From the NCBI GenBank assembly GCA_041744215.1, contig JBGTLG010000033.1, positions 32,001 through 96,000 of the forward strand: a stretch of DNA of 64,000 nucleotides. Reading direction: 5' to 3'. Source of the DNA: Fimbriimonadales bacterium (GTDB lineage Bacteria > Armatimonadota > Fimbriimonadia > Fimbriimonadales > ATM1). The notes beneath the pieces are model-generated. The model was not told where the DNA came from and ran no database searches. It worked only from the letters and a program-made list of their open reading frames with translations. A program made the translations under genes and the position numbers. Positions 30,848 to 52,481 of this stretch are shown one piece after another (the stretch's first letter is position 1; each line of letters begins with the position of its first letter).

Positions 30848-31093
30848 CTGTTTGTTATTGTTAACGGGACTGTTTGAACTCATCGGCTCGGCAGAGTTTG
30901 CGGCTTACGTGTCGTTAGCTCAATCGTTCGGATGCAGGAACTCTGCCGGTTAAGTCTTGAGAGGGCCGAAAGTCAACCTGTTGTGAGATTGCGATTCAGG
31001 AGGTTGTTGAAGAATCTGTCAGTGCTACCCGGTCGGTTTCCGACGAGCCCCGCATTGCCGCCGATGCAGGCTGCACCCGGTAAACGTCAACTC

Positions 31094-31366
31094 CTAACCT
31101 TCGACCAATTCAAATTCGCGACCGATTTCGTCGCCATAAACGTCGATCTGCTCGCCGGACACCGGCTCGCGACACTTGTAGACGTACCCGCAAATCCTCG
31201 ATTGCCCGTCTACGACTCTCACAAACACCATCCGCCCTTCGCACAATCCCACGTAGCCGCCCCTTTCGTAGACGGTGACCTGAACACCGTCGGACACACG
31301 CCTAAACTGCGTGCCAACTGAGTACTCGGGTATGCCGAGTTTCGCGCGTTCTTCATCGAGGTCCAT
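31094..31366 (-). CDS. Hypothetical protein
   Basis: [18 protein letters not shown]... 90 aa with a plausible composition; no family recognised. Confidence 0.45.
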
Positions 31367-31432
31367 TGCTGCGACAATTATGCACTTTCCGGTCGCGTCG
31401 CGGAGCGATGCAGAGCGAGTACAATCGACCCG

Positions 31433-33115
31433 ATGGGCGAGGGTTGGATCAACCAGCTTCACTATGGCGATAACCTCGAAGTCATGCGGGAGAAGATCCC
31501 GGATGAAGTCGCGGACCTCGTCTACCTCGACCCGCCGTTTAACTCACAGCGGAACTACAACGTCTTATTCAAACAGGTGAAGGGCGATCCGGCTCCGGCG
31601 CAGATTATGGCGTTCGAGGACACTTGGCGATGGAGCCCTATGCTCTACGACGAGTTTATGGAAGACGGGCGCAACGCCAAACTCTTCGACCTCGTGCAGA
31701 GCCTCTACCAAATCTTGGGCGATTCCGAGATGATGGCGTATGTCGTCATGATGGCGCCGCGATTGCTCGAACTTCATCGCAAGCTCAAACCAACGGGCTC
31801 GCTTTACCTGCATTGCGATCCGGTCGCAAGCCACTATCTGAAGATTCTGCTCGACGTTATCTTCGAGCCTCAAAACTTTCGGAATGAGATTACATGGAAG
31901 CGACAGAGCGCCCACAGCGACGCGAAACTCAAGTTTCCTGATGTTGCGGACGTCATCTTGTTCTATTCGAAGAGCAGCCAGACGAAATTCGCGCCCGTGT
32001 TTACTGATCACAATCCCGAATATATAGCAGGCTTCTATCGCTATGACGACAATGATGGGAGAGGCTCTTATCGGAAGGACAACATCGCGAGTCCTAATCC
32101 GCGCCCTAACCTAATGTATGAGTGGAAAGGATTTCCGCATCCGGCTAAGGGGTGGCGGTTCGAGAGAAACACCATGGAAAAGCTGGACTCGGAGGGAAGA
32201 ATCTGGTATCCGAGGCATCCAGACGGATCACCCGACACGTCGAAGCGGCCCCAGGTTAAGCGATACCTTGCAGAGATGAAAGGCTCCATCGTTACGAACG
32301 TCTGGACAGACATAAGCCCCGTTCAATATGCGAGTAGGGAGAGTCGCGGGTATCCAACGCAGAAGCCCCTTGCGTTACTGGAGCGGATCGTCGCTGCGAG
32401 CAGCAAGGAGGGCGACGTCGTACTCGATCCGTTTTGCGGCTGCGGTACTGCCGTGGTCGCTGCCGAGCGAATGGGAAGGCGCTGGATCGGCATCGACGTT
32501 ACGTACCTTGCCATTTCCGAAATCGTCTACCGCCTGACCACAGAAACGACTGCGGTTCGCGACAAGGATTACGAACTGCGCGGGACGCCTAAGGACGAGA
32601 TGTCCGCGCTCAAGTTCTTTGAGGAAACCGCGCCGTACAATCACAAACCCTTCGAAATGTGGGCAGTGCATCTTGTCGAAGGCGAACCCCAGGAAAAGAA
32701 GGGCGGCGACAAGGGCATCGACGGTCGTATTCCGTTTCGAGGCATAGATAAGCAACTTCGCTGGGGCATGATACAGGTGAAAGGCGGTAGCAGCGGGCCA
32801 GCACACGTGCGCGACTTCGCGCGCGTCCTCGACCGCGAGAAGGCGCTGTTGGGGCTGTTTATCTGCTTCCGGATCACGAAGGAGATGCGGGAAGAGGCAG
32901 AAAAGATGGGCTATGCGGCATCCCTCGGCGGCAGCCGCAAGGTGCCCCGGTTGCAGATTCTTACGATCAAGGACCTGCTCGAAAAGAAGAAGGAGTTCGT
33001 AATCCCGGAGGGCTACCGATTGCCGAGGTCGAAGGGTGTTGGGAAGGGGATGAGGGCCAACCAAATCGCCATCAGCTATGAAGAGGCGGAGGTCGCCGGC
33101 ACCGATGAGAACTGA
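31433..33115 (+). CDS. N6A/N4C DNA methyltransferase (beta class) with C-terminal Mrr-like restriction endonuclease domain
   Basis: YLDPPF catalytic motif precedes YPTQKP...[11 protein letters not shown] motif; C-terminal GGDKGIDG...IQVKGG PD-(D/E/Q)xK motif. Confidence 0.88.
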
Positions 33116-33250
33116 GCGAGGAGGAGGCGCCAACTGGCAGATGCCCCCCCCAAGTCTCGGCGCGGTCGTTAGAGGCAGAGATTGGAAGGCGTCCAATGAT
33201 TCACGTTTTGTGTGGTCTGCGACACGGGAGTAGTTACGCGTTCGTGTTGA

Positions 33251-35254
33251 TTACAATGTGCAGTCTTCGCTTATACCGTTTTGAACCCCAAGTTTATCAA
33301 AAAGGATCTTGTTTCGCTGGTTAGCTAGGCGCAAAAGTTTGTGATAGGGCAATAGCTCAAAGTAGGCCATTAGCGTCTCGTGATGCTTGTACCAGCAGCC
33401 CCGGTCGGGCGCCCTGCGAAAGTCCTCCTTCCTCAGCATCTCTTCGATCGCTTTGCTTTCATCACAGACGATATATGCGAACACTGGTGTTTCCCGCAGG
33501 GCTTGCTCAAGCGGCCTTCCTCTCCAGTCCTTGATATTGCCATTCCGTATTGCTTCTATGTGCCGGACCAGCTCCTGATATGGGGTTTCCCTATAGTCCG
33601 TGAGCCCGGGTTTCTTGAACTCGAACAGGATGATTGCGGATGGCGCCTCCCAATTGTCTGTATACGCGAAGCTATGGTCCAGAATCAGAATGTCGGGGCG
33701 GACATCGCTGTTGGCGGCCACCCGACCTTTCCGCGACCTGAGCCCTACGTCGGATGCAATGTATTCCGAGTAAGCCAAGCGCTCATCAAGCAACCAGAGG
33801 TTGTGGCGGTCGTACTCCACTTCATCGTTGGTCTTTCTTCGGGGGAAAATGAGACCGTGGATTACGGACTCAAGATCGTAGTCTTTTTCGCTGTCGGCTT
33901 CTAAAGCACGCTGAAGGAAGTCCAACACGACTTTCCTCATGGCAACATGCTCTGCGAGCGCTGCTTGCCCAGTCTCGCTTACGAGTTCCAATAAGCGCTT
34001 GGTTCGATTACGGATTTCTTCGCGAGAGGGGTCGCCCTCACCTGCTAGAACCTCACGAGCTTCGCGAGCGATTCTTTGCTTTAGTTCGTGCAACGCGCGA
34101 TCCAACGCGGCTAACATGTCATCGGTAGTCGCGTCCGGATTAAGCGCGCAGGCCACTCGTTCGAGTTTCTTTCGTAGCGGCGCGTAGATCGGATGCTCCA
34201 CTATCAGCTTCCGAAGCTTTACTTCCAGAAGAGTGCGGGCACTTTCGAGGTCGGTCCCAATATGTTCGTACACGTCTTGAATCACTTGTCTTCGAATTGT
34301 GGACAAGTCGATGGGAGCAAGTCCCGCTTCATCATCCGCCGATGCATCGGTTTCAGGGATTTCAAGCCTTGACCGATCTGGCGCCATGTGATCATCCAGG
34401 TATCTGCCCGCAACGAAAGCCTCGTAGAAATATCCGTCCGAGCCGCCTAGTTTCCCGGCTAAATTGGGGACGTATCGAGAGAGATTCTCAGTCTTGATGG
34501 CCCGACTGTTCGCGACGTACCTTAAACGATGACCCTGATTGTATGAGCTGCGTCGCCTATATGCAGAAAGCACGAATGTCTCCCCGCCTACATCGATACG
34601 CTTGTCTGGGAACCGATCACCGTCCTGCGCACCGGAAAAATCGTTGAGCCGAAGCGCTTCACCTTGATCGCGAATGACGACATCAGGGGAGTTGTCAGAG
34701 TGTACTAGCATGAAGCGATCCAGAATCTGCTCTGCGATCTCTGTCAAAGTGCGAGGCGAGTTCTCGGCGTACTCCTGCCTAAGTTCACGAAGCACTACAC
34801 GCGTGCGTGTGTCTTGATCAGGGACAAGCTGCTCTTCGATCTGCGACCTATCAAGTTCTGGATCGCGTCCGAAAACGAAAGCGCGCTTTCGAAACTCGCC
34901 ATCGTTATAAACACTCTCAATCTCGGCTCTCTCGAACACCTTCAGCCACGAAAGGCGCCCGATCCCTTGCCCGCCTATTTCCGCCTTATACGGGGAGTCC
35001 GTTTCCAGGAATGAGTCTAGATTCTCGTCTGTGAACCCAATGCCATTGTCGGTGATTTCCACGTGTGCGATGTCACCGGCAATGCCCGCAAACATCGGAG
35101 GGTTTCGTACGATGTTGACCTCTACCTTTCCATCTTCTCGTTTGGTCGCTTGAATGGCCTCTATGGAGTTAACAATCGCCTCCACTACCGGGACCATGGT
35201 TCGCCTGGGGGCCACCCTGACCTTCTCTAGTCTCCTACGGAAATTCTGTTTCAT
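33251..35254 (-). CDS. GHKL (HSP90/MORC-like) ATPase fused to a C-terminal PD-(D/E)xK nuclease
   Basis: EAIVNS, DNGIG, GGQGIGR GHKL motifs; NLWLLDERL, RPDILI, EFKKPG nuclease motifs. Confidence 0.82.
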   Translation of the reverse strand: MKQNFRRRLEKVRVAPRRTMVPVVEAIVNSIEAIQATKREDGKVEVNIVRNPPMFAGIAGDIAHVEITDNGIGFTDENLDSFLETDSPYKAEIGGQGIGRLSWLKVFERAEIESVYNDGEFRKRAFVFGRDPELDRSQIEEQLVPDQDTRTRVVLRELRQEYAENSPRTLTEIAEQILDRFMLVHSDNSPDVVIRDQGEALRLNDFSGAQDGDRFPDKRIDVGGETFVLSAYRRRSSYNQGHRLRYVANSRAIKTENLSRYVPNLAGKLGGSDGYFYEAFVAGRYLDDHMAPDRSRLEIPETDASADDEAGLAPIDLSTIRRQVIQDVYEHIGTDLESARTLLEVKLRKLIVEHPIYAPLRKKLERVACALNPDATTDDMLAALDRALHELKQRIAREAREVLAGEGDPSREEIRNRTKRLLELVSETGQAALAEHVAMRKVVLDFLQRALEADSEKDYDLESVIHGLIFPRRKTNDEVEYDRHNLWLLDERLAYSEYIASDVGLRSRKGRVAANSDVRPDILILDHSFAYTDNWEAPSAIILFEFKKPGLTDYRETPYQELVRHIEAIRNGNIKDWRGRPLEQALRETPVFAYIVCDESKAIEEMLRKEDFRRAPDRGCWYKHHETLMAYFELLPYHKLLRLANQRNKILFDKLGVQNGISEDCTL

Positions 35255-35475
35255 AGACCTTCCCTTCGCTCGGGCAATTCGTCGTTGATCTCAATGGCAG
35301 CGCATGCTGCACATCTGGCTGCATCCAATCAATAATACCAACTGAGGGGTTTCTGGTGACCTTTTTTTGGGCGGCGGGGGCTCTAACCTACACACCTAAC
35401 TGGAGGTGCCTCTATGAAGGCGCGACTCTCAATGGCGTTCCGTTTGGCTCCAGCGCGAAGTCTGCGCGCGCAGAT

Positions 35476-35751
35476 CTACTTGTCTTTCTCGAAAATCTGA
35501 TTGAACGGCCAAACTGTTTTGAAGTCGTAGCCAAGCTTCTCGAAGTCGGCCCTTGTCATGGGTCTAGTTCTGCCGTTTTCATCTTTGGTCAATAGGCAGC
35601 TCTGAACCCGTCCGGAAAGGATCGCCGCAACATCTGCCGAAAACCGGGGATCGACGCCAAGAAGCTCCTCCGCCTGCTTGGCAGTTCTTACCTTGTTCTC
35701 CTTTTTTCCCTTTATCACTTCTTGTTCCACCACGCTCGTGTCCGCTCTCAT
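35476..35751 (-). CDS. Hypothetical protein
   Basis: 91 aa ORF upstream of the GHKL gene on the same strand; no family recognised. Confidence 0.35.
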   Translation of the reverse strand: MRADTSVVEQEVIKGKKENKVRTAKQAEELLGVDPRFSADVAAILSGRVQSCLLTKDENGRTRPMTRADFEKLGYDFKTVWPFNQIFEKDK

Positions 35752-35857
35752 TCAGACCGAGGAACCCCGCCCTATGCGTCTCATTGCACCTGAGTCTTTT
35801 GATGCAAAGGGCGCGCACGCGCACCAACCTTTGTGGTCAGTTGCTCTACGTTCCCTT

Positions 35858-35895
35858 CAGTTTACTGAATCGAAGAACGCCCACTTGCCCCAACG
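35858..35895. repeat. 38-bp direct repeat, copy 1
   Basis: CAGTTTACTGAATCGAAGAACGCCCACTTGCCCCAACG, identical to 36387-36424. Confidence 0.92.
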
Positions 35896-35957
35896 GATCC
35901 CGGGGCATATAAATGGGGCTCACGTAGAATGGCGGCAAGGTGTACACTGGTGGCGTT

Positions 35958-36266
35958 ATGATGAAGCTAATGTTAGGTTGGCTACTTGCGATCGCTATCG
36001 CTGTGGTGGTGTTCGGTCTTGCGGTGGATCACCCGGTCGCCAATGGGATTTATCTGGCGGCGATGACGGTGTTCGCGGCCGGTGCGACGTTCGGCGGGGT
36101 GGTTATGGCGTGGCTTATGGTCCGCGCGGCTCTTCGGGGTGACCTGTTCCGGGACACTCGCAGCCGCATGGGTCGGGACGTAGGTTTCGGGAAGGGCGGT
36201 CCTGCCCCGGTTGTTCGGACGGACGAGGAAGCGCTCCAGGAGTTCCTTGATCGAAGCCGTTATTAG
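35958..36266 (+). CDS. Small membrane protein (2 transmembrane helices)
   Basis: Two hydrophobic segments and a charged tail; lies between the 38-bp repeats. Confidence 0.55.
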   Translation: MMKLMLGWLLAIAIAVVVFGLAVDHPVANGIYLAAMTVFAAGATFGGVVMAWLMVRAALRGDLFRDTRSRMGRDVGFGKGGPAPVVRTDEEALQEFLDRSRY

Positions 36267-36283
36267 GTGTAGGATCTGCGGGG

Positions 36284-36386
36284 TTAGACGTGTTCTCTGA
36301 CGAGTCCTACGACTTGGCCGATCAGTTCGCATCTTAGGGTTTCGAGGGGCGGATAGTCGGGGTTGTCGCTTTTCAGGATGGGCTCG
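36284..36386 (-). pseudogene. C-terminal fragment of an S24 (LexA/phage CI-like) peptidase
   Basis: EPILKSDNPDYPPLETLRCELIGQVVGLVREHV* matches the S24 tail L.S.NP.Y..I...IG.VV; truncated exactly at the repeat. Confidence 0.65.
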
Positions 36387-36424
36387 CAGTTTACTGAATC
36401 GAAGAACGCCCACTTGCCCCAACG
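36387..36424. repeat. 38-bp direct repeat, copy 2 (continues into a long hairpin ending at 36463)
   Basis: Identical to 35858-35895. Confidence 0.92.
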
Positions 36425-36564
36425 ACGGACGCTCCTAACGTCGCGTCCGTCGATTGGGCAAGTCGTTTGAGGCAGGTGACCCTCCGGCAGATCGCGGTCT
36501 CTGGTTAAGGGCCGAGAGGAGCGTAAAGCCACCCGGCCCTGGTCAGCTAAGAGGAACTTCGCTT

Positions 36565-37335
36565 CTACTTCTTTCTTCGCCGCGCGGCCAGAGCCGCAAG
36601 GCCGATGCCGAGGATCGCCAAGCTTGCAGGCTCGGGGACCGCATACCCGACGCCCGTTTCGCCGGAAAAGGCAGCGCGGATATGAAGCTGCGCTGGGTTG
36701 GCCATCGGATCGTATAGCGCTGGGATCCAGCCGGTGGGTCGGTCGATGAAATCCAAATGACCTCGCATCACGCCGCTTTGGCCTATCAACTGGTTTCGGA
36801 TAGCGATCTCGCCGCCAACAATTGTGCCGACGCCCTCGAGCACGTAGGCGTCGAAATCCGAATATCCGTACAGCGAAACGGCATCGAGTTCGAGCGCCCA
36901 CAGCACGCCGAACGGCATACCGAGGGAGGGGATCGAGCCCATGATGACGAGGTCTGGACCTGCTGCGTCGGCGCCCGTACCGGTTAGGCTTACGTCTATC
37001 ACTCCGCCCGGGCCGGCGTATGGCGCGTCTTGGCCGGTGAATATGACTTGCATCCCGAAGTCGCCGCCGAACTCGCCAGCGGCGTTGAAGATCGGATGGA
37101 CCGGCGGGGCCGGCCAGGTTGGCCAATAGGCAGTCACCTCGGTATCCAATGATCCGAGAGTGTAAGAAAGCAGATCGGGCGCCACGCCCCTTGTGCTCCA
37201 CTCTGGCATCGGCACCGTCCTATTGAACGCACCGAAGTTTATGTCGTGGCCGGTTATCGTTGGTGTGAGCGGCGCGGCCATCGCGGCCGATCCCATCAAT
37301 GCTGCCGACGCCCATAAGAAGGCTCTGCTTATCAT
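36565..37335 (-). CDS. PEP-CTERM sorting domain surface protein
   Basis: Signal peptide; C-terminal VPEPASLAILGIGLAALAARRRKK; AAGGAG RBS. Confidence 0.92.
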   Translation of the reverse strand: MISRAFLWASAALMGSAAMAAPLTPTITGHDINFGAFNRTVPMPEWSTRGVAPDLLSYTLGSLDTEVTAYWPTWPAPPVHPIFNAAGEFGGDFGMQVIFTGQDAPYAGPGGVIDVSLTGTGADAAGPDLVIMGSIPSLGMPFGVLWALELDAVSLYGYSDFDAYVLEGVGTIVGGEIAIRNQLIGQSGVMRGHLDFIDRPTGWIPALYDPMANPAQLHIRAAFSGETGVGYAVPEPASLAILGIGLAALAARRRKK

Positions 37336-37722
37336 CGTTTTCTCTCCTTGGCCTCCGGATAAAAATCCCGTTTGGCCTTAGGGCCTCAATCCGGCCCGGT
37401 TACAGGGTATCACAACTGGCATCGACGTGGGCTGTGGGTGCGCAAAACTGGTAATTCTACCGTGGCGCAGGGCGGCGTTCCTCTTGGGTGATGCGGTTTT
37501 CGGATGACGTTGTTGTTGGCGTTGGGATTCGTGTAATTCGGGGGGTCTTGAGAATGGAAGCGGTGCGATGTGCAGATGGCCAAACCTCGCTCCGATCTCA
37601 ATGGCACTCGCCTGATCCTCGAACAACCGCGCTGGTATCTGTCGCCCGTAAAATTGCCATCGTTTGGCATAGGCATATAGATTGCTATATAATCAGGGTT
37701 CACTATCTGGTTGGGGGCAGGC

Positions 37723-38472
37723 ATGATCACAATTCTTTTAGCAGCAACTTTCGGGGTGACTCTCGCACAGGGAGGCCCGGAGTCCTTCTTCTGCTCGTCC
37801 GTTCGTTTCGGATACACGGGGACCATTTCGGTTTACAACACGTTTGCCGAAGCTCAATCGGGTAGGAATCCTCGGCACTCCTCTGTCGTGGTTCCTAACC
37901 GCGACGGCGCGATCTACATAGTTCGCAACCGTCCGACTTTCTATGAGGACTTCAATGCGTTTTTGACGTTTTGGAGTTCGCATGAAGGGCAGAACCCAAA
38001 CAACACAAACTTAGGTTTTATTCAGATGTATGACGACGACGCGTCGAACTGGCTCAACCAGAAGGGCTACTGGAATAGAAGCAAGACCACTTTTACTGTT
38101 GAGGCGATGGGCCGGAACGCTACTTATCCGTCCGGCGCGAACCCGGGCGACTATGCGCGCCTGTGGAATGCTGGTGCGGTGCAAGGCAGCGGCGAATCGA
38201 CGAAAGGCACGTTTTTGCGCTACGAGTACAAGTTCATCGTGACTGGAGTTCAAGGCACGGACGACGATCAAGATGGGTTTTTCGAGTACCGCGGTCCCGA
38301 TGGTCAGTTTTCCGGATACTTCAAGGGGATTTTCGAGAACGAGAGCGCATCTTCGCCAGGATCAAACGGCTTCTACGTTGTTGAACTTTCATTCAATAAC
38401 ACGAGTTGGTCAGTTGCAAACAACTTTACGAAGAACAACGCGTTCGGTTCGTCTCGCACTCAGGGTAACTGA
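37723..38472 (+). CDS. Secreted hypothetical protein (aromatic/Asn-rich, beta-rich)
   Basis: Signal peptide; long ORF; downstream hairpin. Confidence 0.7.
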   Translation: MITILLAATFGVTLAQGGPESFFCSSVRFGYTGTISVYNTFAEAQSGRNPRHSSVVVPNRDGAIYIVRNRPTFYEDFNAFLTFWSSHEGQNPNNTNLGFIQMYDDDASNWLNQKGYWNRSKTTFTVEAMGRNATYPSGANPGDYARLWNAGAVQGSGESTKGTFLRYEYKFIVTGVQGTDDDQDGFFEYRGPDGQFSGYFKGIFENESASSPGSNGFYVVELSFNNTSWSVANNFTKNNAFGSSRTQGN

Positions 38473-38479
38473 GCCACAA

Positions 38480-38509
38480 ATAGGGCGTGGACGAATTGCC
38501 GCGCCCTAT
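38480..38509. terminator. Hairpin between convergent genes
   Basis: ATAGGGCGTGG...CCGCGCCCTAT. Confidence 0.6.
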
Positions 38510-42235: not shown

Positions 42236-42538
42236 ATGTTTCAACTTGTCGGTGTAGACGTTTACCTGAGATCTGAAGGTGTTCCCGAAGTTCCGCGCGA
42301 ACACGGTCCTTTCAAATTGATTTTCATATCCAATCGCGGCACTCGCGTTTGGCCAAACAAAATCGAAGGCTTTTCGATGATCGATTGGCCGCGGTGTCGG
42401 TATGAAGCGGACGGCGAGATTTCTGACAATGATGTCGAGGGACTGGTGAGCGCGCTTACCCACGGCGGCTTCACATGGACGAAGTGTCAGAAGCTCTATC
42501 GCAAAGACGGGGAGAACCAATACAGTCAGCCTTATTGA
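42236..42538 (+). CDS. Stand-alone homolog of the C-terminal domain of Thermus-type isocitrate dehydrogenase
   Basis: LVGVDVY...FKLIFISNRGTRVWP...DWPRCRY...WTKCQKL..DG...YSQ parallels the T. thermophilus IDH tail (VGVDVF, ISNRGTQVYP, RCRF, EKL). Confidence 0.75.
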   Translation: MFQLVGVDVYLRSEGVPEVPREHGPFKLIFISNRGTRVWPNKIEGFSMIDWPRCRYEADGEISDNDVEGLVSALTHGGFTWTKCQKLYRKDGENQYSQPY

Positions 42539-42569: not shown

Positions 42570-43568
42570 ATGCCATACGATGTTTGTTTGATTCGTGGAG
42601 ACGGGATTGGGCCGGAGATCACTGCGGCGACAGAAAAGATCATCGCAGCCGCGGGCGTTGCAATCAACTGGATCGAAGTCGATGCGGGATTGCGGTGTGT
42701 CGAAGCTGGTGAGCCGATTGTTCCGGACAGGACGCTGAAGAAGATCGAGGAAGTTGGGATCGCGCTCAAGGCGCCGATGACGACACCGATTGGGAAGGGT
42801 TCTGTTTCGCCGAATGTAACGCTACGGAAGCGACTGGATTTGTACGCTTGTGTGCGCCCTGCGAAGTCGTTACCGGGCGTGCCGACCCCTTTCGAGGGGC
42901 TCGACATCGTCATCTTCCGCGAAAACACAGAGGATCTCTACGCGCAGATCGAATACATGGAGACGCCGACGGTCGCGATGTCGACCAAACTCATTTCGGA
43001 GATGGGAGCGGAGAGGATTGCCCGCGCGGCGTTTGAGTATGCGCGGAAAAACCGTCGTCGCGCTGTGACATGCGTTCACAAAGCGAACATCATGAAGATT
43101 TCGGACGGCCTTTTTCTGCGCACTTTTCAGCGCGTTGCGGCCGAGTATCCTGACGTAGAGTCGTGGGACGTTATTGTGGATGCGCTCTGTATGCAGTTGG
43201 TGACGAAGTGGCGGATGTTCGATGTTTTGGTATTGCCAAACTTGTATGGCGATATAGTGAGCGATCTCGCTGCGGGCATGATGGGCGGTTTGGGTGTTGC
43301 GCCCGGCGCGAATTATGGAGACAAAGCCGCGATTTTTGAAGCGGTGCATGGCTCCGCGCCGAAATATCAAGGGCTCGACAAAGTGAATCCGATGGCGCTA
43401 TTGCTGTCCGGGACTTTGATGTTGCGGCACATCGGCGAAGACGCTGCGGCGATTCGGATCGAGAAAGCGGTCGAGACGACTTTGGTTAAGGGGATCAAGA
43501 CGTACGATTTGTTCGGCTCTGCTAAGACGAGCGAGTTCGCGGATGCGGTTTGTTCGGAACTGGGTTAG
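42570..43568 (+). CDS. icd: Isocitrate/isopropylmalate dehydrogenase family, probably isocitrate dehydrogenase
   Basis: GDGIGPEI, SPNVTLRK, RENTEDLY, HKANIMK, NLYGDIVSDLAAG, FEAVHGSAP. Confidence 0.85.
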   Translation: MPYDVCLIRGDGIGPEITAATEKIIAAAGVAINWIEVDAGLRCVEAGEPIVPDRTLKKIEEVGIALKAPMTTPIGKGSVSPNVTLRKRLDLYACVRPAKSLPGVPTPFEGLDIVIFRENTEDLYAQIEYMETPTVAMSTKLISEMGAERIARAAFEYARKNRRRAVTCVHKANIMKISDGLFLRTFQRVAAEYPDVESWDVIVDALCMQLVTKWRMFDVLVLPNLYGDIVSDLAAGMMGGLGVAPGANYGDKAAIFEAVHGSAPKYQGLDKVNPMALLLSGTLMLRHIGEDAAAIRIEKAVETTLVKGIKTYDLFGSAKTSEFADAVCSELG

Positions 43569-44740
43569 TTCGTCAGCTTATCGAGCGCCTTCTTGAGATT
43601 TGGCGACGGTTTGCCGTAGCTGTGCGCTTCCCCCAGAGTTGTTCGGATGAGGCCGGAAGAGCGATCATATTCGATCATAACGACCACTTTTGCGCGGCGC
43701 AGTACGAGTTTCGCGGTGGGAGTGAACTTCTTTGGAGCGGAGGCCTGATCTACGTCGGCGTCTTTAACTTCGACGGACTGCCTTCCATTGGAAACGGTGA
43801 TCGCGCCGATGCCGAGGTCCCAACGCAAAGGCGCGGCTTTGCCGCCGCCGAATGGCGAGTACTTCTTCACACTCCAGACTGTTCCAGAGTTTGGATCCAC
43901 GTATCCACCGAATGCGGCCACGTCGGTCTTTACCGATTCACCCATGCTGGGTTGGAATGCAGAAAAGCAGTAAGCAAGCGTCGATTCATTCGTTCCGATG
44001 AGATCGAGTACGGATTGCGGCACGGCGTTGACGTTCTGATTGATGTGCTGGGGTTTCGGGTTCCAGATCACCAATTCCGCCACCTCGACGTTGAGTGTGC
44101 TGGCTCCGAAGTTGGTGTAGACGTGGGCGGCGAAGTTGTAGATCGCCGCTTCGAGTGAAATCGAAACCTGAAACGATGTGGGCGGATTTGGGAGCCTGGG
44201 GTCACGAGTTAATCCGGTCAAGCGACCGGTGTTGTAGTCGATAAGAGCGGCGATGCGATGCTCAGGATGAAAGAAAATACTCTCATGGGTAGGCAGGTAA
44301 GCCAGAACATAGGCCGGAAAGCCATTCGCATTCAACTCCCGCACGAACTGCTTGACAACCACCGGCTGCGTGCACCCACTCGCTGCGACGTATTCAGTTC
44401 CGAGGGCCATGGCTAGATTGTCGCCAATAGCATTCTGGTGGTCCCATGACTCGGGCGGAGGGAATACGCGATCCGGAGGGGAATAGCTGAAGCCCACGAT
44501 GAGATGATCTGACCTGCGCAGGCGTACCCTGCCATCCGGGAAGGCAAAGACATACACGTCCGGAGTGTGATCTGCGCTCTCCAACTCAAACACGGGAACA
44601 TACAGATTCGAGTACGTTCCGTTTGCGGTCGCCGCCATGTCGCGGAAAGCCCGGGCTTTTGCGAGAGCGACTGCCTCGTCGTCCACCTGAACCAGAAACC
44701 CCGCAACGACCGCTGGGACCAATAGCGCAGTTATCATCAT
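43565..44740 (-). CDS. Secreted PepSY-like repeat protein, paralog 1
   Basis: Signal peptide, AGGAG RBS; IDYNTGRL and VDPNSGTV PepSY-type hairpin motifs; paralogous to the next two genes. Confidence 0.8.
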   Translation of the reverse strand: MMITALLVPAVVAGFLVQVDDEAVALAKARAFRDMAATANGTYSNLYVPVFELESADHTPDVYVFAFPDGRVRLRRSDHLIVGFSYSPPDRVFPPPESWDHQNAIGDNLAMALGTEYVAASGCTQPVVVKQFVRELNANGFPAYVLAYLPTHESIFFHPEHRIAALIDYNTGRLTGLTRDPRLPNPPTSFQVSISLEAAIYNFAAHVYTNFGASTLNVEVAELVIWNPKPQHINQNVNAVPQSVLDLIGTNESTLAYCFSAFQPSMGESVKTDVAAFGGYVDPNSGTVWSVKKYSPFGGGKAAPLRWDLGIGAITVSNGRQSVEVKDADVDQASAPKKFTPTAKLVLRRAKVVVMIEYDRSSGLIRTTLGEAHSYGKPSPNLKKALDKLTN

Positions 44741-44817
44741 GTATCTCCTGGCGCGTTCCTCGAGGCGCGGCCCGCAGGCTTCGCGGACCAAAGATAGGAC
44801 GTGCGACCAGGGGAAGG

Positions 44818-44862
44818 AAGACGAGCGAGTTCGGGGATGCGGTCTGCGCGGAGTTGGTTTAG
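44818..44862 (+). repeat. Duplicated icd 3' end (KTSEFGDAVCAELV*)
   Basis: Homologous to 43524-43568; first 16 bp identical. Confidence 0.9.
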
Positions 44863-46037
44863 CCCGTGAGCCGATCGAGCGCCTTCTTGAGATTCGGCGA
44901 CGGTTTGCCGTAGCTGTGCGCTTCTCGCAGGGTTGTGCGGAGGAGACCGCTTGTTCGGTCGTATTCGATCATGACAACGACTTTTGCGCGTCGGAGTACG
45001 AGTCTCGATGAAGCGTTGAAGGCTTTTGGTGCGGGAACTCGATCGACGTCAGCGTCCTTGACTTCGATCGAATGTCTTCCGTTCGAGGCAATAATCTCTC
45101 CGAGTCCCAGATCCCAACGAAGCGGCGCCAGCTTACCGCCGCCGCCGCCGAATGGCGTGTATTGCTTCACGCTCCAGACTGTGCCTGAATTTGGATCTAC
45201 GTAGCCCTCGAAAAAGGCGACGTCGGTCTTCGTCGATTCGCCCATGCTCGGTTGGAACGCCGAAAAGTAGTAAACGAGGGTCGATTCGTTCGTGCCGATG
45301 AGGTCGAGTACGGCTTGCGGCACGTTGTTCGCAGACTGATTGATGTCCTGCGGCTTCGGGTTCCAAATCACTAATTCTGCCCCATCGATGTTGAGGTTGC
45401 TTGCACCGTAGTTCGAGTAAACCCAGGACGCGAAGTTGTAGAGGGCGGTCTCCGGAGAAATCGAGGATTGGAGAGAGGCGGGTGGATTAGGGGTGTTCTC
45501 CGGACCGAAGTAACCGGTCAGGCGTCCGGTGCTTGGCTCAATCACAGCGAAGGCTTGATATCCACCGTCGAACGGAATTCCATTGTAAGTCGGGGCACAA
45601 TTGAAAACGTATCCCGGCCGACCGGAAACATTATTCTCCCGGCGGAGGCGCATCACCACAAAGTTGAGGGAATGCCCCGCTGCCGTCAAGTAGTTCATTG
45701 CCAATGCAACGGCCGCCGAGTCGCCAATTGCGTTCAGGCTATCCCACGTTTCAAGCGGTATAGCTTCGTCCAGCGGGGAAAAACTGAAGCCGACAACCAG
45801 GTGATTAGAGCGAAGCAGGATCACGCCGCCGTCCTTGAACTCGAAGACATACTTATCCGAACTGTGATCGGTGCCCCTCAATTCAAATACAGGACTGTAC
45901 AGATTCGAGTACGTTCGGTTTGCCGTCGCCGCCACGTCGCGGAACGCCCGGGCTTTTGCGAGAGCGACTGCCTCGTCGTCCACCTGAACCAGAAACCCCG
46001 CAACGACCGCTGGGATCAAAAGTGCAGTTATCATCAT
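44859..46037 (-). CDS. Secreted PepSY-like repeat protein, paralog 2
   Basis: N-terminus nearly identical to paralog 1, C-terminus nearly identical to paralog 3, divergent middle. Confidence 0.8.
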   Translation of the reverse strand: MMITALLIPAVVAGFLVQVDDEAVALAKARAFRDVAATANRTYSNLYSPVFELRGTDHSSDKYVFEFKDGGVILLRSNHLVVGFSFSPLDEAIPLETWDSLNAIGDSAAVALAMNYLTAAGHSLNFVVMRLRRENNVSGRPGYVFNCAPTYNGIPFDGGYQAFAVIEPSTGRLTGYFGPENTPNPPASLQSSISPETALYNFASWVYSNYGASNLNIDGAELVIWNPKPQDINQSANNVPQAVLDLIGTNESTLVYYFSAFQPSMGESTKTDVAFFEGYVDPNSGTVWSVKQYTPFGGGGGKLAPLRWDLGLGEIIASNGRHSIEVKDADVDRVPAPKAFNASSRLVLRRAKVVVMIEYDRTSGLLRTTLREAHSYGKPSPNLKKALDRLTG

Positions 46038-46114
46038 GTATCTACGGGCGCGTTCCTCGAGGCGCGGGCCCCAGGCTTCGCGGACCTAAGATAGGATGTG
46101 CGACCAGGGAACGG

Positions 46115-46159
46115 AAGACGAGCGAGTTCGGCGACGCGGTTTGCGCTGAAGTGGCTTAG
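46115..46159 (+). repeat. Duplicated icd 3' end (KTSEFGDAVCAEVA*)
   Basis: Homologous to 43524-43568; first 16 bp identical. Confidence 0.9.
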
Positions 46160-47325
46160 CCCGTGAGCCGATCGAGCGCCTTCTTGAGGTTCGGCGACGG
46201 TTTGCCGTAGCTGTGCGCTTCTCCCAGGGTTGTGCGGAGGAGACCGCTTGCTCGGTCATATTCGATCATGACAACGACTTTTGCGCGTCGGAGTACGAGT
46301 CTCGATGAAGCGTTGAAGGCTTTTGGTTCGGGAACTTGATCGACGTCAGCGTCCTTGACTTCGATCGATTGTTTTGCGTTGGAAACGGTGATCGCGCCGA
46401 TTCCGAGGTCCCAACGCAAAGGCGCGGCTTTGCCGCCGCCGAATGGGAAGTACTGCTTCACGCTCCAGACTGCGCCCGAGTTGGGATCGACATATCCGCC
46501 GTAACCGGAAATGTCCCGCTTCCCTTCCGCGTATCCGCTCGGCTGCACGGCCCAGAAGCAATAGACTAGAACCGAGTCGTTGGTTCCAATCAAGTCGAGT
46601 ACCGATTGAGGCAGACTATGGGATTCATAGCTGATATGCGACGGTTGTGGATTCCATATCACCAGTTCCGAAGTCTCCACGTTGATATTGCTGGCACCGT
46701 AAGTGGTGAAGACGTGCGCAGCAAAGTTATAAAGCGCCGTTTCATGTGGCACAGACGTCAGAAATGAAGCCGGTGGATTCGGCAATTCGGCGTCCCGTAC
46801 GAGAAACAAGAGGCGACCCGTGTTGTATTCCACCAAAGTTGATATTGCGTACTGAGGATGGTAGAGTACGCTGTTGTGAGCAGGAAGATGTGTCATTGAG
46901 TAAGCTACATACATGACTGCATGCAGATCTCGCTCAAAGTACTTGAGGACGCATGGCTGCGAGCAACCACTCGCTTCGATGTACTGGCCTGCAAGCGTCT
47001 GTGCAGCTGAATCGCCGATCGCGTTCTGGGCATCCCACGTATCGAGAACTGGCCGTGCCGCATCCGGCGGTGAGAAACTGAAACCGACGATGAGGTGATC
47101 CGAGCGGCGAATGCGCACTCCCCCATCTGCAAAATAGAAGTGATAAATCTCAGCGTTGTGATCGGTTTTTTCAAGCTCGAATACTGGAGAATATTGGTTC
47201 GAATATGTTCCGTTCGCGCTCGCCGCTGTCTCACGAAATGCTCGCGCTTTATTGAGCGCAGTTACTTCGTCGTCATAAACGAAGCCTGTGGACAACAAAA
47301 CTGGCAGCAGAACAATTGAGGTCAT
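46156..47325 (-). CDS. Secreted PepSY-like repeat protein, paralog 3 (translationally coupled to the upstream protease-like gene)
   Basis: ATGA overlap at 47322-47325, AGGAGG RBS, signal peptide MTSIVLLPVLL. Confidence 0.8.
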   Translation of the reverse strand: MTSIVLLPVLLSTGFVYDDEVTALNKARAFRETAASANGTYSNQYSPVFELEKTDHNAEIYHFYFADGGVRIRRSDHLIVGFSFSPPDAARPVLDTWDAQNAIGDSAAQTLAGQYIEASGCSQPCVLKYFERDLHAVMYVAYSMTHLPAHNSVLYHPQYAISTLVEYNTGRLLFLVRDAELPNPPASFLTSVPHETALYNFAAHVFTTYGASNINVETSELVIWNPQPSHISYESHSLPQSVLDLIGTNDSVLVYCFWAVQPSGYAEGKRDISGYGGYVDPNSGAVWSVKQYFPFGGGKAAPLRWDLGIGAITVSNAKQSIEVKDADVDQVPEPKAFNASSRLVLRRAKVVVMIEYDRASGLLRTTLGEAHSYGKPSPNLKKALDRLTG

Positions 47326-48677
47326 TGGCTTCCTCCTGGTGGATTGTTTGGCGTTCCCCCTCCGAAACTTGGCGGGTTGATCAGAATCCACTGGGTTCCT
47401 GTTCCCCCGTATACACCCATCAGTTTCATGTTCCCGTCTCCTACAATTCGAGGGTACGCCCTCGAAATCGATTCATACTGTCCAGCGCGTGGAATGACTC
47501 CGGCACTGATCAAGTCACCGATCACTTTTCCAACCGTCTTGCCGGCCGTCAAATCGCTAAAGAACTTCTCGGCCCAAATGGCGAGGTCAGTAATGTCTCC
47601 AGGGTTCAACGCAGGCGGCGGTCCGTGAGCAAACAATGAGAAGCTCCATCCTACATAGGCTCTATTCTTTGAACCCGATGTTATCGAACCGCCAGGTCCA
47701 AGGACAACATTTGCTATCTCAAAAGCAGCGGCAGGCGTTCTCCCGCTGTCGCGCCCAGTCGTGTCGCAAGCCATCAAGACGACAAGATTGTACGGCGGAG
47801 CGTTCGCCGGATTCGGATCAAGTACCCAGTCTTTGATGTTGGACCAAGTCGCTTCCAGTGGCTGCGGCTGCATAGCAACAGAAGGATAGACACCGCGCTG
47901 GTCGCCATGAGTAATGCCGACCAGCACCGTGCTCTTGCGTATCAGCTCGGTCAATTGTGATAGCGAGACGGATTGTGAATCATCGAACGGCTTTGGCTCT
48001 GCCGTGTGATTCATTCCTTCGAGCGCGCCACCGGCTATGTTGATGCACTCCTTAGCCTTCGAAGACTCCGGCGAACCCGGTGGCACGGCGGTTGCGACAA
48101 GTCCAGCTTTGTTGTACACCTTGATGTCCACTTCGACGACCAGTTCCTTCGTAGAGGTCTCCTGCACATACGTAACTCCGCCGTCGTATGAGACGAGCCA
48201 ATACCCCTCGAATTTCGCGCGAAGGCGGATTTTGCCCTGAGTGTTATCTGGGAAATGGGTCGAAGAGAAGCGCACTCCGTAGCCGTAGGTTGGAGTCGGC
48301 TCATAACTGACCTGCGGCATCGGAGGATCATTCTCGCCAGAGGGGTTTCCCGCTTCCTCCCCCAGGATCTTCAGCTCGAATTCCACAATGCGGACTCCGG
48401 CCCAGTTGTCAATCGCGAAGGGATCATAGCCAGGTGTTCCCATCGGAATCTCTCCCGCTCCAGCATGCACACCGAACTCGACGCTCGTTCCGCTGACAAG
48501 GGTGGGAGAGTGCGATGACAGGACATCCTCTCCACTTACGCTGACCGAGAGTCTTTTCCCTTTGTGATCAAGGGTTACCGCGCCCGGGGGCGGCGGATCG
48601 GGGGAACCACCTCCACCCGTTTGCCCGAACAATCCAGCGCCGAGTAGCGACGCAGCGACGATCCATCCTACTCTCAT
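47322..48677 (-). CDS. Secreted protein with a clan CD (caspase/CHAT/gingipain-like) peptidase domain
   Basis: Signal peptide; hydrophobic strand + HG (VLVGITHG) and strand + AC (LVVLMACDT) dyad; AYVGW, FFSDL..GKTV, IVGD. Confidence 0.7.
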   Translation of the reverse strand: MRVGWIVAASLLGAGLFGQTGGGGSPDPPPPGAVTLDHKGKRLSVSVSGEDVLSSHSPTLVSGTSVEFGVHAGAGEIPMGTPGYDPFAIDNWAGVRIVEFELKILGEEAGNPSGENDPPMPQVSYEPTPTYGYGVRFSSTHFPDNTQGKIRLRAKFEGYWLVSYDGGVTYVQETSTKELVVEVDIKVYNKAGLVATAVPPGSPESSKAKECINIAGGALEGMNHTAEPKPFDDSQSVSLSQLTELIRKSTVLVGITHGDQRGVYPSVAMQPQPLEATWSNIKDWVLDPNPANAPPYNLVVLMACDTTGRDSGRTPAAAFEIANVVLGPGGSITSGSKNRAYVGWSFSLFAHGPPPALNPGDITDLAIWAEKFFSDLTAGKTVGKVIGDLISAGVIPRAGQYESISRAYPRIVGDGNMKLMGVYGGTGTQWILINPPSFGGGTPNNPPGGSQ

Positions 48678-48689
48678 CAATATAGTACA

Positions 48690-48722
48690 AGTATAAGAGA
48701 GAGAGAGAGAGAGAGAGAGCAA
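48690..48722 (-). promoter_or_regulatory. Putative phase-variable promoter with a (CT)12 microsatellite spacer
   Basis: TTGCTC (-35, 48722-48717), 21-bp CT spacer, TATACT (-10, 48695-48690); (AG)12 at 48696-48719 on the plus strand. Confidence 0.65.
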
Positions 48723-48730
48723 CAGTATTT

Positions 48731-49612
48731 TTACTGGGTTTTAGGCTCATCAGGATCGGTTTTTGGGACGGCTTGCTGGCGATTAGAGAAGCAGACCGCC
48801 AGCGCGATTCCGCCGAGGGTGGCGATGGAGGCGACGATCAGACGCATCGTGATCTGCTCCGAGAGAAGGAGCGCACCTGCGAACGCCGTTAGGATTGGGA
48901 CCGAAAGCTGGACGATGGCGGCGCGTGTCGAGGTTAGGCTTGGCTGCACCGCGTACCACAAGATGTAGCCGAGACCCGACGTGACGACCCCTGAAACAAC
49001 CGCGTACACAACGCCGACGTTTGTGAACTCGATTTGCGAGAAGAGAACTGCGGACAATGCGATTGCGAAAGGCGCGGACCAGCGGAAGTTCTCTGCCGTT
49101 GCGAGGGCAGGATGCTCAGCGCCTCGTCCGCGCAAAGTGTATGCCCCCCACGCGATTCCGGCGATGGCCATGAACGCCGCACCGAGCGGATCAGGCGCTG
49201 ATAGGCCAGGCGAGACGAGATAGACCAAGCCGCAGAGCGCGATCAAAAGCCCCAACCATTCTTGAAGTCCCGGACGCTCCCCGCGCACGATCCCATAAGA
49301 GATCATCGTCGCTTGCACCATGCCGAAGAGAATCAGCGCGCCGACGCCGGATTCGAGCGAAACGTATGCGAACGAGAACGCGATCGCATACAGCGCAAGC
49401 ATAAAGCCGGAGATCGCATTGCCAGCACCCTTTTGTTTTGAGCGAAGCGAGAACAGTAGCCAAAGCGCGATTGCGCCAGAGACGAGCCGGATCGTGGTGA
49501 AGCTCGCCGCATCGATTTGTTCTTCGCGCAGAGCCAGCCGACAAAGAATCGAATTGCTCGCAAATGCGGCGAGAGCGAGAGCTGTCAGCAGACCTGCGCG
49601 AAGCGGTGACAA
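48731..49612 (-). CDS. DMT/EamA family transporter
   Basis: About 10 transmembrane helices; FASNSILCRLAL, SGLGYILWY. Confidence 0.88.
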   Translation of the reverse strand: MSPLRAGLLTALALAAFASNSILCRLALREEQIDAASFTTIRLVSGAIALWLLFSLRSKQKGAGNAISGFMLALYAIAFSFAYVSLESGVGALILFGMVQATMISYGIVRGERPGLQEWLGLLIALCGLVYLVSPGLSAPDPLGAAFMAIAGIAWGAYTLRGRGAEHPALATAENFRWSAPFAIALSAVLFSQIEFTNVGVVYAVVSGVVTSGLGYILWYAVQPSLTSTRAAIVQLSVPILTAFAGALLLSEQITMRLIVASIATLGGIALAVCFSNRQQAVPKTDPDEPKTQ

Positions 49613-50355: not shown

Positions 50356-50910
50356 ATGGCGAAGATCTACACGAAGACGGGGGACGCGGGCGAGACTGGG
50401 CTGATTGGCGGCGACCGGGTTTCGAAGGGGAGTGCCCGGATGAACGCGATCGGCGAAGTCGACGAGGCTAATGCGGCGATCGGCTTAGCCGTCACCTCCG
50501 GCCTCGATGCAGACGTTGCTGCGGTTCTGCGCCGCATCCAATGGGAGCTTTTTGATTTGGGAGCAAGCCTGGCGACGGTCAAGTCGGGAGCCTATAGGAC
50601 GTCGAGCGTCGGGCAACGTCAGATCGAGCAGATCGAATCCGAGATCGACGGGTTCTCTTCGGAGAACCCTCCGCTGACGCACTTCATCCTGCCTGGCGGA
50701 TCGTTGCTGGGGGCCCACCTGCACCTTGCTCGAACCGTCGTTCGTCGAGCCGAGCGGGCGGTCGTCGGGCTGGCAGAGACGGAGGCTGTTCCTGCCGAAG
50801 CCATCATGTACCTGAATAGGCTCTCGGACTTGCTCTTCACACTTGCCCGTACCGTGAACAGGAGGTCGGGCGTCGAAGAATTGAAGTGGACGCCGGAGGT
50901 TAAGACGTGA
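50356..50910 (+). CDS. pduO: Cob(I)alamin adenosyltransferase, PduO type
   Basis: KIYTKTGDAGET, FILPGG, RRAER, YLNRLSD. Confidence 0.93.
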   Translation: MAKIYTKTGDAGETGLIGGDRVSKGSARMNAIGEVDEANAAIGLAVTSGLDADVAAVLRRIQWELFDLGASLATVKSGAYRTSSVGQRQIEQIESEIDGFSSENPPLTHFILPGGSLLGAHLHLARTVVRRAERAVVGLAETEAVPAEAIMYLNRLSDLLFTLARTVNRRSGVEELKWTPEVKT

Positions 50911-51668
50911 TTTCAGTTGTTGCTGCCTTGATTATGAGTTCGCCGTATGCGCTTACGGCGGAAGAACTGTGGACGAACACGCTTCAGAGGTATGAGACCG
51001 CTGTGGCTGTTAGGGGGACGATCGAGTTTGTTCAAACGGGCACAGCCGGGGACTTAGAGGGTCGCTCCGTCGTCGTGACCGAAGTGGCGGCAAAGCAGCC
51101 AAACCTGTTTTCAATTCGTCAGACGAAGCGAACGGGGCAAGCATCGGTGTTCATGGCAGCGAGCGACGGGAAACAGATGTCGTTCACTGCGCCCGCTGAC
51201 TGGCAACGGATCTCTTCGCGTGCACGCACCGTGTATGGGTGGGCTCCAGAAAAACTGGAAGGCGCGCTTGACAGCATTGCGACCCTTTTGCTCGATAGGC
51301 AATTGCCGATTGCACTTGCGGTTTACAATCCAGTCGATGTGAAACTGTTTTCTCGGGCGATTCGAAAACCGGTGATTGCGGATGAATTTGTGGACGGCGG
51401 AAGGACAGTCTATCGCTTGGAGGCAGACTTTGCGTTTTCCCGGTTTGGCCCTGCCGACCCAAGCAAGCGCAATTCGGTCGATGCTTGGATTCCGATCCAC
51501 CTCTACGTTACGAAAGCTGGGGACTTGCTGGCGATGGAGTATGCGGAAACACTGAGCTTTAAGGATCAGCGGACGGGGCTGAACATCTCCCTTCAGGTTG
51601 TCAATCGGTGGAACGTTAACCTCCAGGTGAATGTGCCGATCGACTCGTCAGTCTTTGCGGTGCAGTAG
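50907..51668 (+). CDS. Secreted LolA-like/DUF2092-like protein
   Basis: Signal peptide; KQPNLF, SDGKQ; paralog of the next gene. Confidence 0.6.
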   Translation: MISVVAALIMSSPYALTAEELWTNTLQRYETAVAVRGTIEFVQTGTAGDLEGRSVVVTEVAAKQPNLFSIRQTKRTGQASVFMAASDGKQMSFTAPADWQRISSRARTVYGWAPEKLEGALDSIATLLLDRQLPIALAVYNPVDVKLFSRAIRKPVIADEFVDGGRTVYRLEADFAFSRFGPADPSKRNSVDAWIPIHLYVTKAGDLLAMEYAETLSFKDQRTGLNISLQVVNRWNVNLQVNVPIDSSVFAVQ

Positions 51669-51734
51669 CCGTTTGGGTATCCTGATTCGAACTCGGCGCC
51701 CTGGCTCGGACGTCTTGGCGAGGGAATTCACTCT

Positions 51735-52481
51735 ATGTTTGCAATAATCGTCGCCGCCCTGATCAGCGCACCGCAAGACACGCCGCTCGATGGCAAGGCC
51801 ACGTTCGAGCGAATGCTCACGAAGTATTACAGCGCGAAGTCAATCAAGGGGACGATCGAGTTTAATCAGACCGTCGAAGGGGTTGGCAAGAGTACGATCT
51901 TGACGACAGTGCAAGCGCAGAAACCAAACCTGTTATTCATAGAGCAGACCAAGACCACCGGCGAAAAGGCGAGTTTCCGAGCGATTTGCGACGGAAAGCA
52001 GTTAGTGTTTACGGCGCCTCCCGATTGGACAAACTACCGCCCAGGCGCACGGATGGTGTTTGCAGAGGCCCCGGATTCCTTCTCGAATGCTATGGACTCG
52101 TTCGCTGTGTTGATGCTCGATCGCCAGCTTGCTTCTGGTCTCGCGCTTTACAATCCATATGAAGTCGTTACTTTCACAAAGCAGATAAAGAACATCCGAA
52201 TGGAAGCGGAAGTAACGCTATCCGGGACACCGGCTTGGCGGCTGTCGGCGGAGTATGGAATAGGTGTCGGTGGCCCCGGCACTGGCGAGCGCGCAGCTTA
52301 TGCGAAGGCGTGGTTCTATGTGAGCAAGAACTTTGACTTTTTAGGAATGGTCTATCAAGAGATCTTACAGGGAACAAACGAGCGGACGAGGCAGACCATC
52401 CGGTATCAGATAACGAATCAGTGGATTGTTAATCTTGTGGTGGATGCGCCCGTCGACGCGAGTTTGTTCCGAATACAATAA
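51735..52481 (+). CDS. Secreted LolA-like/DUF2092-like protein
   Basis: Signal peptide; QKPNLL, CDGKQ, LDRQL, VDASLF shared with the previous gene. Confidence 0.6.
   Translation: MFAIIVAALISAPQDTPLDGKATFERMLTKYYSAKSIKGTIEFNQTVEGVGKSTILTTVQAQKPNLLFIEQTKTTGEKASFRAICDGKQLVFTAPPDWTNYRPGARMVFAEAPDSFSNAMDSFAVLMLDRQLASGLALYNPYEVVTFTKQIKNIRMEAEVTLSGTPAWRLSAEYGIGVGGPGTGERAAYAKAWFYVSKNFDFLGMVYQEILQGTNERTRQTIRYQITNQWIVNLVVDAPVDASLFRIQ

Follow-up and report, generated by a model that had tools for sequence, protein, structure and literature searches.

Organization of the icd locus

We analyzed a stretch of 64,000 nucleotides (hereafter the window; positions 32,001 to 96,000 of contig JBGTLG010000033.1, assembly GCA_041744215.1) from the genome of a Fimbriimonadales bacterium of the phylum Armatimonadota. 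Between a gene of the isocitrate/isopropylmalate dehydrogenase family (icd) and an EamA transporter gene it carries a module of a candidate secreted cysteine peptidase of 451 amino acids (aa) and three homologous PepSY-like partner proteins of 389-392 aa (p3, p2 and p1), all encoded on the minus strand (Table 1). The start of p3 and the stop of the protease gene share 4 nt. The partner units follow each other with periods of 1294 and 1297 bp, and each partner stop abuts a copy of the 45 bp that end the convergent icd gene (at 43524, 44818 and 46115). These three sites were the only ones found for the 45-bp icd end when the 2.68-Mb genome was scanned with up to 12 mismatches, and the initial 16 bp do not differ among the three copies. 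The protease-partner overlap, the units of about 1.3 kb and the stacking at the icd 3' end were known from a preliminary description of the sequence, and all of the coordinates check out. The top NCBIfam matches of the icd gene are isocitrate dehydrogenases, every one of them under its cut-off.

The metagenome runs which match the locus are hot-spring samples from one study. Contigs of run X1, a possible source of this DNA, span all three icd-tail junctions at even depth and with 0-2 differences, which shows that the number of repeats in the array was neither collapsed nor inflated; positions 46644-48947 are left uncovered by these contigs. In the contigs of the four runs of this study no joint was found that skips a cassette. 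In X2 and X3, one low-depth contig joins 44646 to 43799, with other letters in between.

Table 1. Features of the icd locus; positions refer to the window.
Feature	Position	Strand	Remarks
icd-family gene (isocitrate/isopropylmalate dehydrogenase)	42570..43568	+	3' end anchors the array; PF00180, E 3e-100
Functional icd 3' tail	43524..43568	+	14 codons and stop
Orphan partner p1	43565..44740	-	391 aa with PepSY-like repeats and a hydrophobic N-terminus; its ribosome-binding site is good
Junction 1	44741..44817	.	p1 leader, near-identical to junction 2; includes an extension of the icd end that has decayed
Displaced icd tail, copy 2	44818..44862	+	7 differences to icd, 4 of them synonymous
Orphan partner p2	44859..46037	-	392 aa; ribosome-binding site changed compared with p1
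Junction 2	46038..46114	.	p2 leader; origin in common with junction 1
Displaced icd tail, copy 3	46115..46159	+	7 differences to copy 2, 5 of them synonymous
Cognate partner p3	46156..47325	-	389 aa; three predicted PepSY-like domains and C-terminal beta domain
Most variable p3 domain (PepSY-like domain 2, residues 94-180)	46786..47046	-	
Candidate secreted caspase/CHAT-fold cysteine peptidase	47322..48677	-	451 aa; fold from predicted model
Hypervariable protease segment, residues 346-410	47448..47642	-	35-65% identity to close homologues
Cys304, predicted nucleophile	47766..47768	-	
His257, predicted general base	47907..47909	-	
Likely promoter (TTGCTC, 21-nt spacer, TATACT)	48690..48722	-	role inferred
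EamA transporter	48731..49612	-	other edge of the insertion; directly abuts icd in congener G001

The protease

The structure model of the protease, with a predicted local distance difference test score (pLDDT) of 84, comprises an all-beta domain (residues ~30-188) followed by a catalytic-type alpha/beta domain (~189-435). Its best structural match is SAVED-CHAT (8tl0; Z 15.3, root-mean-square deviation (rmsd) 3.6, 187 aligned residues), a defence protease, followed by metacaspases, legumain, MALT1, separase, gingipains and caspases. Of the top 39 VIA rows, almost all are clan CD folds, and Foldseek gave 54 matches at E ≤ 0.001. Structure model and structural search agree on the caspase-like fold that had been proposed for this product.

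His257 lies in a His-Gly motif after the strand 251-255 and Cys304 in an Ala-Cys motif after the strand 298-301, 47 residues apart. A profile search yielded 810 protease representatives at 50% clustering, with a listing of the best 150. In an alignment of 153 sequences at about 25% identity, 152 conserve His257 and 149 conserve Cys304. Based on the fold matches and this conserved dyad, the predicted protein is a clan CD-like cysteine peptidase candidate, related to CHAT and DUF6345 and member of neither. The query matched no entry in Pfam, NCBIfam or PADLOC, and the protease profile matched none of the PDB sequences. For CHAT (PF12770), the query gives no hit and one of 31 members reaches E 0.0017. 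DUF6345 (PF19872) is the nearest named cluster by language-model features (0.94), and a weak profile match to it spans both motifs (E 6e-4, probability 30%). Membership in DUF6345 was rejected, as no match was obtained in the genome (E ≤ 0.001) or among the 31 members. The hydrophobic N-terminus and the lack of a later membrane segment suggest that the protease is exported.

The PepSY-like partners

The model of p3 (pLDDT 90) predicts three PepSY-like domains at residues ~18-85, 94-180 and 188-295 and a C-terminal beta domain at 301-389. It matches YpeB (Z 14.0, rmsd 5.1, 210 aligned residues) and the M4 propeptide (Z 8.1); the other top structural matches are an uncharacterised Eubacterium protein and M4/M36 propeptides. 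The PepSY-like character of the partners, suggested earlier from the sequence, is confirmed at the level of the modelled fold. At the sequence level, p1, p2 and p3 have no match in Pfam (including PF03413, PepSY), NCBIfam or PADLOC. Ten of 38 members of the partner family match PF03413 weakly at E ≤ 0.05 (best E 1e-4), and among the PDB sequences the partner profile found only weak PepSY/M4 propeptide rows, in addition to Tni2 at E 1.2. For M4 enzymes, PepSY is described as likely protease-inhibitory (PMC7851659), and according to references cited there, M4 propeptides of the PepSY fold help folding as well. Another source, as far as its available sections go, mentions PepSY-like domains as ligand-binding modules only (PMC12419801).

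p1, p2 and p3 are 60-68% identical overall. The last domain is the most conserved part (78-88%), and residues 94-180 are only 33-48% identical. The conserved ends and divergent middles noted before are therefore found at the C-terminal side and in domain 2; at the N-terminus they do not hold, since residues 1-17 of p3 are 24% identical to p1 and p2 (p1 and p2 to each other, 94%), and the units are mosaic.

Allele matching of protease and partner

Among close homologues, residues 346-410 are the most variable segment of the protease. By caspase topology, we take them to include loops lining the substrate cleft. Over residues 136-258, the local protease and its homologue P0004 share 94-96% identity, and over 346-410 they share 35%. 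Its partner could be assigned through the sequences P0011 and P0161, which are the same apart from an N-terminal extension of P0161. The reading frame of this extension fits the last 15 residues of P0004 only, which shows that the P0011/P0161 partner follows a P0004-type protease. Domain 2 of P0011 shows 78% identity with p2 and 32% with p3, whereas domain 2 of p2 is 33-40% identical to p3 and p1. Therefore, p2 is an allele that elsewhere accompanies another protease 3' end.

Across three foreign pairs, the identity of protease residues 346-410 (65, 58 and 35%) tracks the identity of partner domain 2 (76, 62 and 32%); the pairing of P0004 was taken from the frame overlap, and those of P0002/P0006 and P0003/P0007 are presumed from longest contigs of equal length. 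In these three pairs, the identity of residues 346-410 does not track that of the protease N-terminal part. Two metagenome scans found no loci. Among the four pairs of the genome G138, identity is 48-66% over the protease together with the initial 320 nt of the partner gene, and 82-94% over the 3' part of the partner. The P0004/p2-type pairing, the three foreign pairs and G138 all point to the co-variation of protease and partner alleles that was expected in the preliminary description.

In a tree of nine partners, from which more distant ones were left out, a single clade of p1, p2 and p3 was rejected by the approximately unbiased (AU) test (p-AU 1e-7 for the whole protein and 1e-4 for domain 2). 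The same test was applied to Vibrio immunity arrays (PMC5361080).

A repeat tract in the putative promoter

The longest dinucleotide repeat of the genome, a (CT)12 tract ((AG)12 on the forward strand, 48696-48719), lies just upstream of the protease ATG, which has no ribosome-binding site. It fills the 21-nt spacer between the hexamers TTGCTC and TATACT; ten repeat units, i.e., two fewer, would give a spacer of 17 nt. From its sequence, this arrangement is likely a promoter, although a consensus promoter scan did not call it.

Repeat tracts were found at 17 of 51 homologous protease starts (-200 to +60; the 51 include a few partial rows), in 15 genomes. For comparison, 13 of the 1725 other genes in this genome have such a tract, as do 4 non-protease genes among 177 open reading frames (ORFs) of long loci. 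Seven tracts sit between -35- and -10-like hexamers, with varying units (CT, G, C, T). In G138, the paralogous tracts follow a TTGACT hexamer and are unequal in length (T11, T9, T9), so that the pairs which have them are possibly switched independently. The phase variability suggested before is retained as a possibility insofar as the tract lies in a likely promoter and repeats recur at homologous starts, but the tract itself is upstream of the ATG and outside the likely coding region. The homologues P0002 and P0003 start at the equivalent of the ATG; for this reason, phase variation of the frameshift type via the in-frame TTG at 48722 was discarded.

The only other long dinucleotide tract of the genome, an (AG)10 at G000:C25:40807, is located just upstream of a gene for a small secreted cysteine-rich protein (C25:40858-41361) and marks a second candidate contingency locus.

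Distribution in Armatimonadota

Within the order (228 genomes), the protease is present in 45 and the partner in 36 genomes. In the phylum (401 genomes), 68 genomes carry the protease, where the weakest matches may be other clan CD proteins. The distribution is patchy, the module is very diverse, and the neighbour genes differ from genome to genome. Coupling was counted for 29 intact proteases, after 9 stubs or halves of broken genes had been dropped from the 38 protease rows of the order. A coupled partner homologue lies downstream in 28 of them (E ≤ 0.01; 15 of these are in or near-identical to the training set of the partner profile and 13 are independent), and in the remaining case the coupled gene encodes a secreted protein that matches the partner profile weakly.

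At the 30 best partner loci, the protease is intact in 15 cases, broken in 4, a C-terminal stub in 4, missing in 4 and not judgeable in 3; these classes were corrected by hand where the searched range extended beyond an upstream partner and for read-through of stops. Thus, while nearly every intact protease has a partner, 12 of the 27 partner loci that could be judged lack an intact protease. Intact partners without a full protease nearby are found in G001, G010, G050, G063 and G144. Arrays occur elsewhere, with three orphans in G050 and partner after partner in G180, and G138 has four complete protease-partner pairs in tandem (L078:6000-16520). The layout protease-partner-stub-partner is found in G151 and G111, and an orphan after a stub in G151, G111, G055 and the second locus of this genome. 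Orphan partners are thus recurrent, and the partners are not fixed orthologues, as G001 has no cassette at icd.

The second locus of this genome (C6:85497-88855, L135) is distant. It encodes a protease of 359 aa with both motifs and a PepSY-like partner with a C-terminal membrane anchor, followed by a C-terminal protease stub and a second partner (39% identical). The locus adjoins phage-head-like genes (C6:89020-92515). In G180, a remnant of a partner 3' end lies upstream of the protease (L077:4866-4947), a trace of earlier displacement.

Formation of the array

In the congener G001, icd directly abuts EamA with nothing in between, which shows that the module was inserted at icd in the genome studied here. 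The EamA tail (48731-48790) is longer than and different from that of G001, consistent with the insertion having replaced the EamA stop. The two internal junctions are one sequence and therefore have a single origin. Junction 1 possibly retains a remnant of the protease C-terminal tail, to which its sequence bears a weak resemblance.

The icd tails differ mainly at synonymous sites, with proportions of synonymous differences (pS) of 0.42-0.55 and of nonsynonymous differences (pN) of 0.06-0.12 over 14 codons only. Judged by its sequence, each spare tail diverged as if it had once been a real icd end, which fits a capture by recombination. Between units 2 and 3 the 3' 300 nt are 87-98% identical, and between units 1 and 2 the 5' 180 nt are 90-95% identical. 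We infer that the array arose when the locus recombined unequally with relatives' DNA, with icd and the conserved end of the partner as anchors.

A parallel to the icd tails is found in G001, where a 125-bp direct repeat from inside clpC (L014:6539-6661 and 8919-9042, 90% identical) encloses the gene of a membrane protein together with a protease stub and the partner. A PEP-CTERM-like gene fragment follows in G001, and a short (CT)5 is present at about 7009-7019. No integrase or transposase lies beside the array of the window; the 16-bp core may be the target of a recombinase working in trans. Since the module sits elsewhere in relatives, an element specific for icd was discarded as an explanation. 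The stacking at the icd 3' end, emphasized in the preliminary description, is thus real in this genome, but the choice of icd as the site is incidental.

Possible function of the module

With modest confidence we favour the reading that the locus encodes a phase-variable exported protease, its cognate inhibitor and orphan inhibitors, which together would work like toxin-immunity arrays among close relatives. Protease and partners would be exported by Sec, and the cognate p3 would cover the substrate cleft and restrain the protease of the own cell. The protease of a relative with another allele would be harmful unless a matching partner is present, and p1 and p2 would be the matching partners for proteases which the strain lost or never had. 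The array would grow by recombination with relatives' DNA, for which the icd end and the partner's conserved 3' part would serve as anchors, and each such event would move an old icd tail further inside. Repeat slippage in the (CT)n spacer would toggle the operon, the 21-nt spacer as assembled being the off state. The genome encodes three secretins and Omp85, indicating a diderm cell. More tentatively, and with somewhat more doubt than trust, this may be extended to phase-variable kin discrimination throughout the phylum, in which a Sec-exported caspase-fold protease would attack the envelope of relatives with no needle or two-partner system, and cells would collect libraries of allele-specific PepSY inhibitors through recombination.

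Several observations weigh against the inhibitor-array reading. Target, toxicity and activity of the protease are hypothetical, and regarding delivery, VipB, a sheath gene of type VI secretion systems (T6SS), was not found in the 93%-complete genome (other secretion systems were not searched), nor does another dedicated delivery gene adjoin the module. PepSY-like folds are also present in YpeB and YycH/YycI, which are not known as inhibitors, and the known PepSY inhibition concerns metallopeptidases. The ribosome-binding site of the orphan p2 is altered, and the second partner at the C6 locus, which is orphan-like, is frameshifted. The consensus promoter scan revealed no separate promoter for the orphans, so an operon that is switched off could also silence p1 and p2. 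The variable part of the partner differs by clade, being domain 2 here and the first quarter in G138. pN/pS is below 1 in all domains (0.23-0.66, with pS near saturation), and positive selection was not shown. Outside the order coupling is looser, with the partner downstream at 12, upstream at 3 and not detected at 3 of 18 loci. Some of the broken proteases in metagenome assemblies may be assembly errors, and an old duplication with differential loss would likewise yield non-monophyly.

Three other explanations were weighed. The partner could be a required subunit, a chaperone, a specificity adaptor or a substrate of the protease, e.g., in a surface receptor pair for self-recognition or adhesion, with the extra partners as alternative specificities and phase variation concealing the surface structure from phage or predators. 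Any allele-specific contact would be compatible with the strict translational coupling and the co-variation, the assistance in folding by M4 propeptides of the PepSY fold (according to references in PMC7851659) would be a precedent, and the partner of the second locus is membrane-anchored. However, intact partners persist without a full protease nearby in the five genomes named above, and p2 matches a foreign and not the local protease allele, which makes such a role fairly unlikely.

We consider it improbable that the module acts on its own cell as a periplasmic toxin-antitoxin, either as a selfish addiction module, whose orphans would protect against incoming modules, or as a guard that kills when phage or stress removes the inhibitor. 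An on/off promoter suits addiction poorly, a phage guard would not need allele-specific orphans, PADLOC has no match for the four proteins, and neither integrase nor transposase accompanies the array. On the other hand, no delivery system would be needed, the patchy distribution and changing loci would be accounted for, the closest fold belongs to a defence protease, and the second locus adjoins phage-head-like genes. Finally, an ordinary secreted peptidase with an accessory gene might have undergone local tandem duplication and drift without any allele-specific function. The common junction sequence does indicate one original duplication, and the near-identical ends of units 2 and 3 as well as 1 and 2 agree with it. 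This explanation is nevertheless very improbable, as p1, p2 and p3 are non-monophyletic, the spare icd tails show coding-type divergence, the p2 allele occurs with another protease, the same layout is found at unrelated loci, and the likely promoters bear repeats.

Neighbouring genes

Upstream of the catalytic icd gene, positions 42236-42538 encode a stand-alone isocitrate dehydrogenase C-terminal domain (PF18324), the reverse of the order in the fused NADP-type enzyme; G001 has domain and catalytic gene in the same order as found here. The region between trpB and clpC (30900-38500) is variable, and G001 carries other genes there. In the window it contains a DNA methyltransferase (31433-33115, PADLOC type II/III matches), an ATPase-like ORF of 667 aa and a PEP-CTERM-like gene, along with a perfect 38-bp repeat in direct orientation (35858, 36387). 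A tandem pair of paralogous secreted proteins of about 250 aa without Pfam match is located at 50907-52481.

Comparison with known systems

No description of a caspase-fold protease paired with a PepSY partner was found in the literature searched, which included few subscription journals and no supplements; the pairing might still appear in extensive supplementary tables of surveys on toxins and immunity proteins. The module is undescribed and not a member of a described system, and both protein families are unannotated. If the inhibitor-array reading holds, the exported caspase-fold protease would be a new effector class in bacterial kin conflict and the PepSY repeats directed against a cysteine peptidase a new immunity class, and on/off promoter switching would be added to kin conflict in a little-known phylum. 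If the kin-discrimination reading is true, the partners would be the first case of PepSY proteins inhibiting a cysteine peptidase, together with a natural collection of hundreds of matched protease-inhibitor pairs. Such pairs would show the evolution of specificity at a caspase-type cleft, and the local protease/p3 and P0004/p2 offer a natural comparison of cross-specificity.

The T6SS arrays of Vibrio cholerae and the arrays of contact-dependent inhibition (CDI) and Rhs systems resemble the module in that a cognate gene is coupled to an effector-like gene, with orphans and truncated effector stubs coming after them. Orphans of effector-immunity arrays are nearer to the alleles of other strains than to each other, and these arrays grow by recombination, as reported in two studies (PMC5361080; PMC8189183). 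The orphans described here are likewise closer to alleles of other strains (p2 and the partner of P0004). In contrast to T6SS, CDI and Rhs loci, the module was found without a T6SS sheath gene and without Rhs, VgrG or two-partner domains. Unlike in effector-immunity arrays, an N-terminal signal for export is predicted in each of the two proteins, all orphans belong to a single homologous family, and the promoter repeats suggest phase variation. Polymorphic toxins exchange unrelated toxin tips, whereas here one homologous catalytic domain is kept and only its 3' third is exchanged.

The protease shares the fold and the order of His and Cys with the clan CD peptidases (CHAT, metacaspases, legumain, gingipains) but differs from these families by its N-terminal all-beta domain, its separate PepSY-repeat partner and the lack of a sequence match in Pfam, NCBIfam and PDB. 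The partners have the fold of PepSY proteins such as YpeB, the M4/M36 propeptides and YcdB/YcdC (DUF4901). In contrast to them, they stand alone with three repeats and a tail domain and are coupled to a cysteine peptidase instead of a metallopeptidase. The elements e14 and phage 21 integrate in the icd 3' end of Escherichia coli, and spare icd 3'-end copies flank the added DNA there as they do here. Unlike with such elements, no integrase is near the array, and the partner in G001 is bounded by the clpC-derived 125-bp repeat. Finally, as in phase-variable contingency loci, a simple repeat that is rare elsewhere in the genome occupies the likely promoter spacer of the module.

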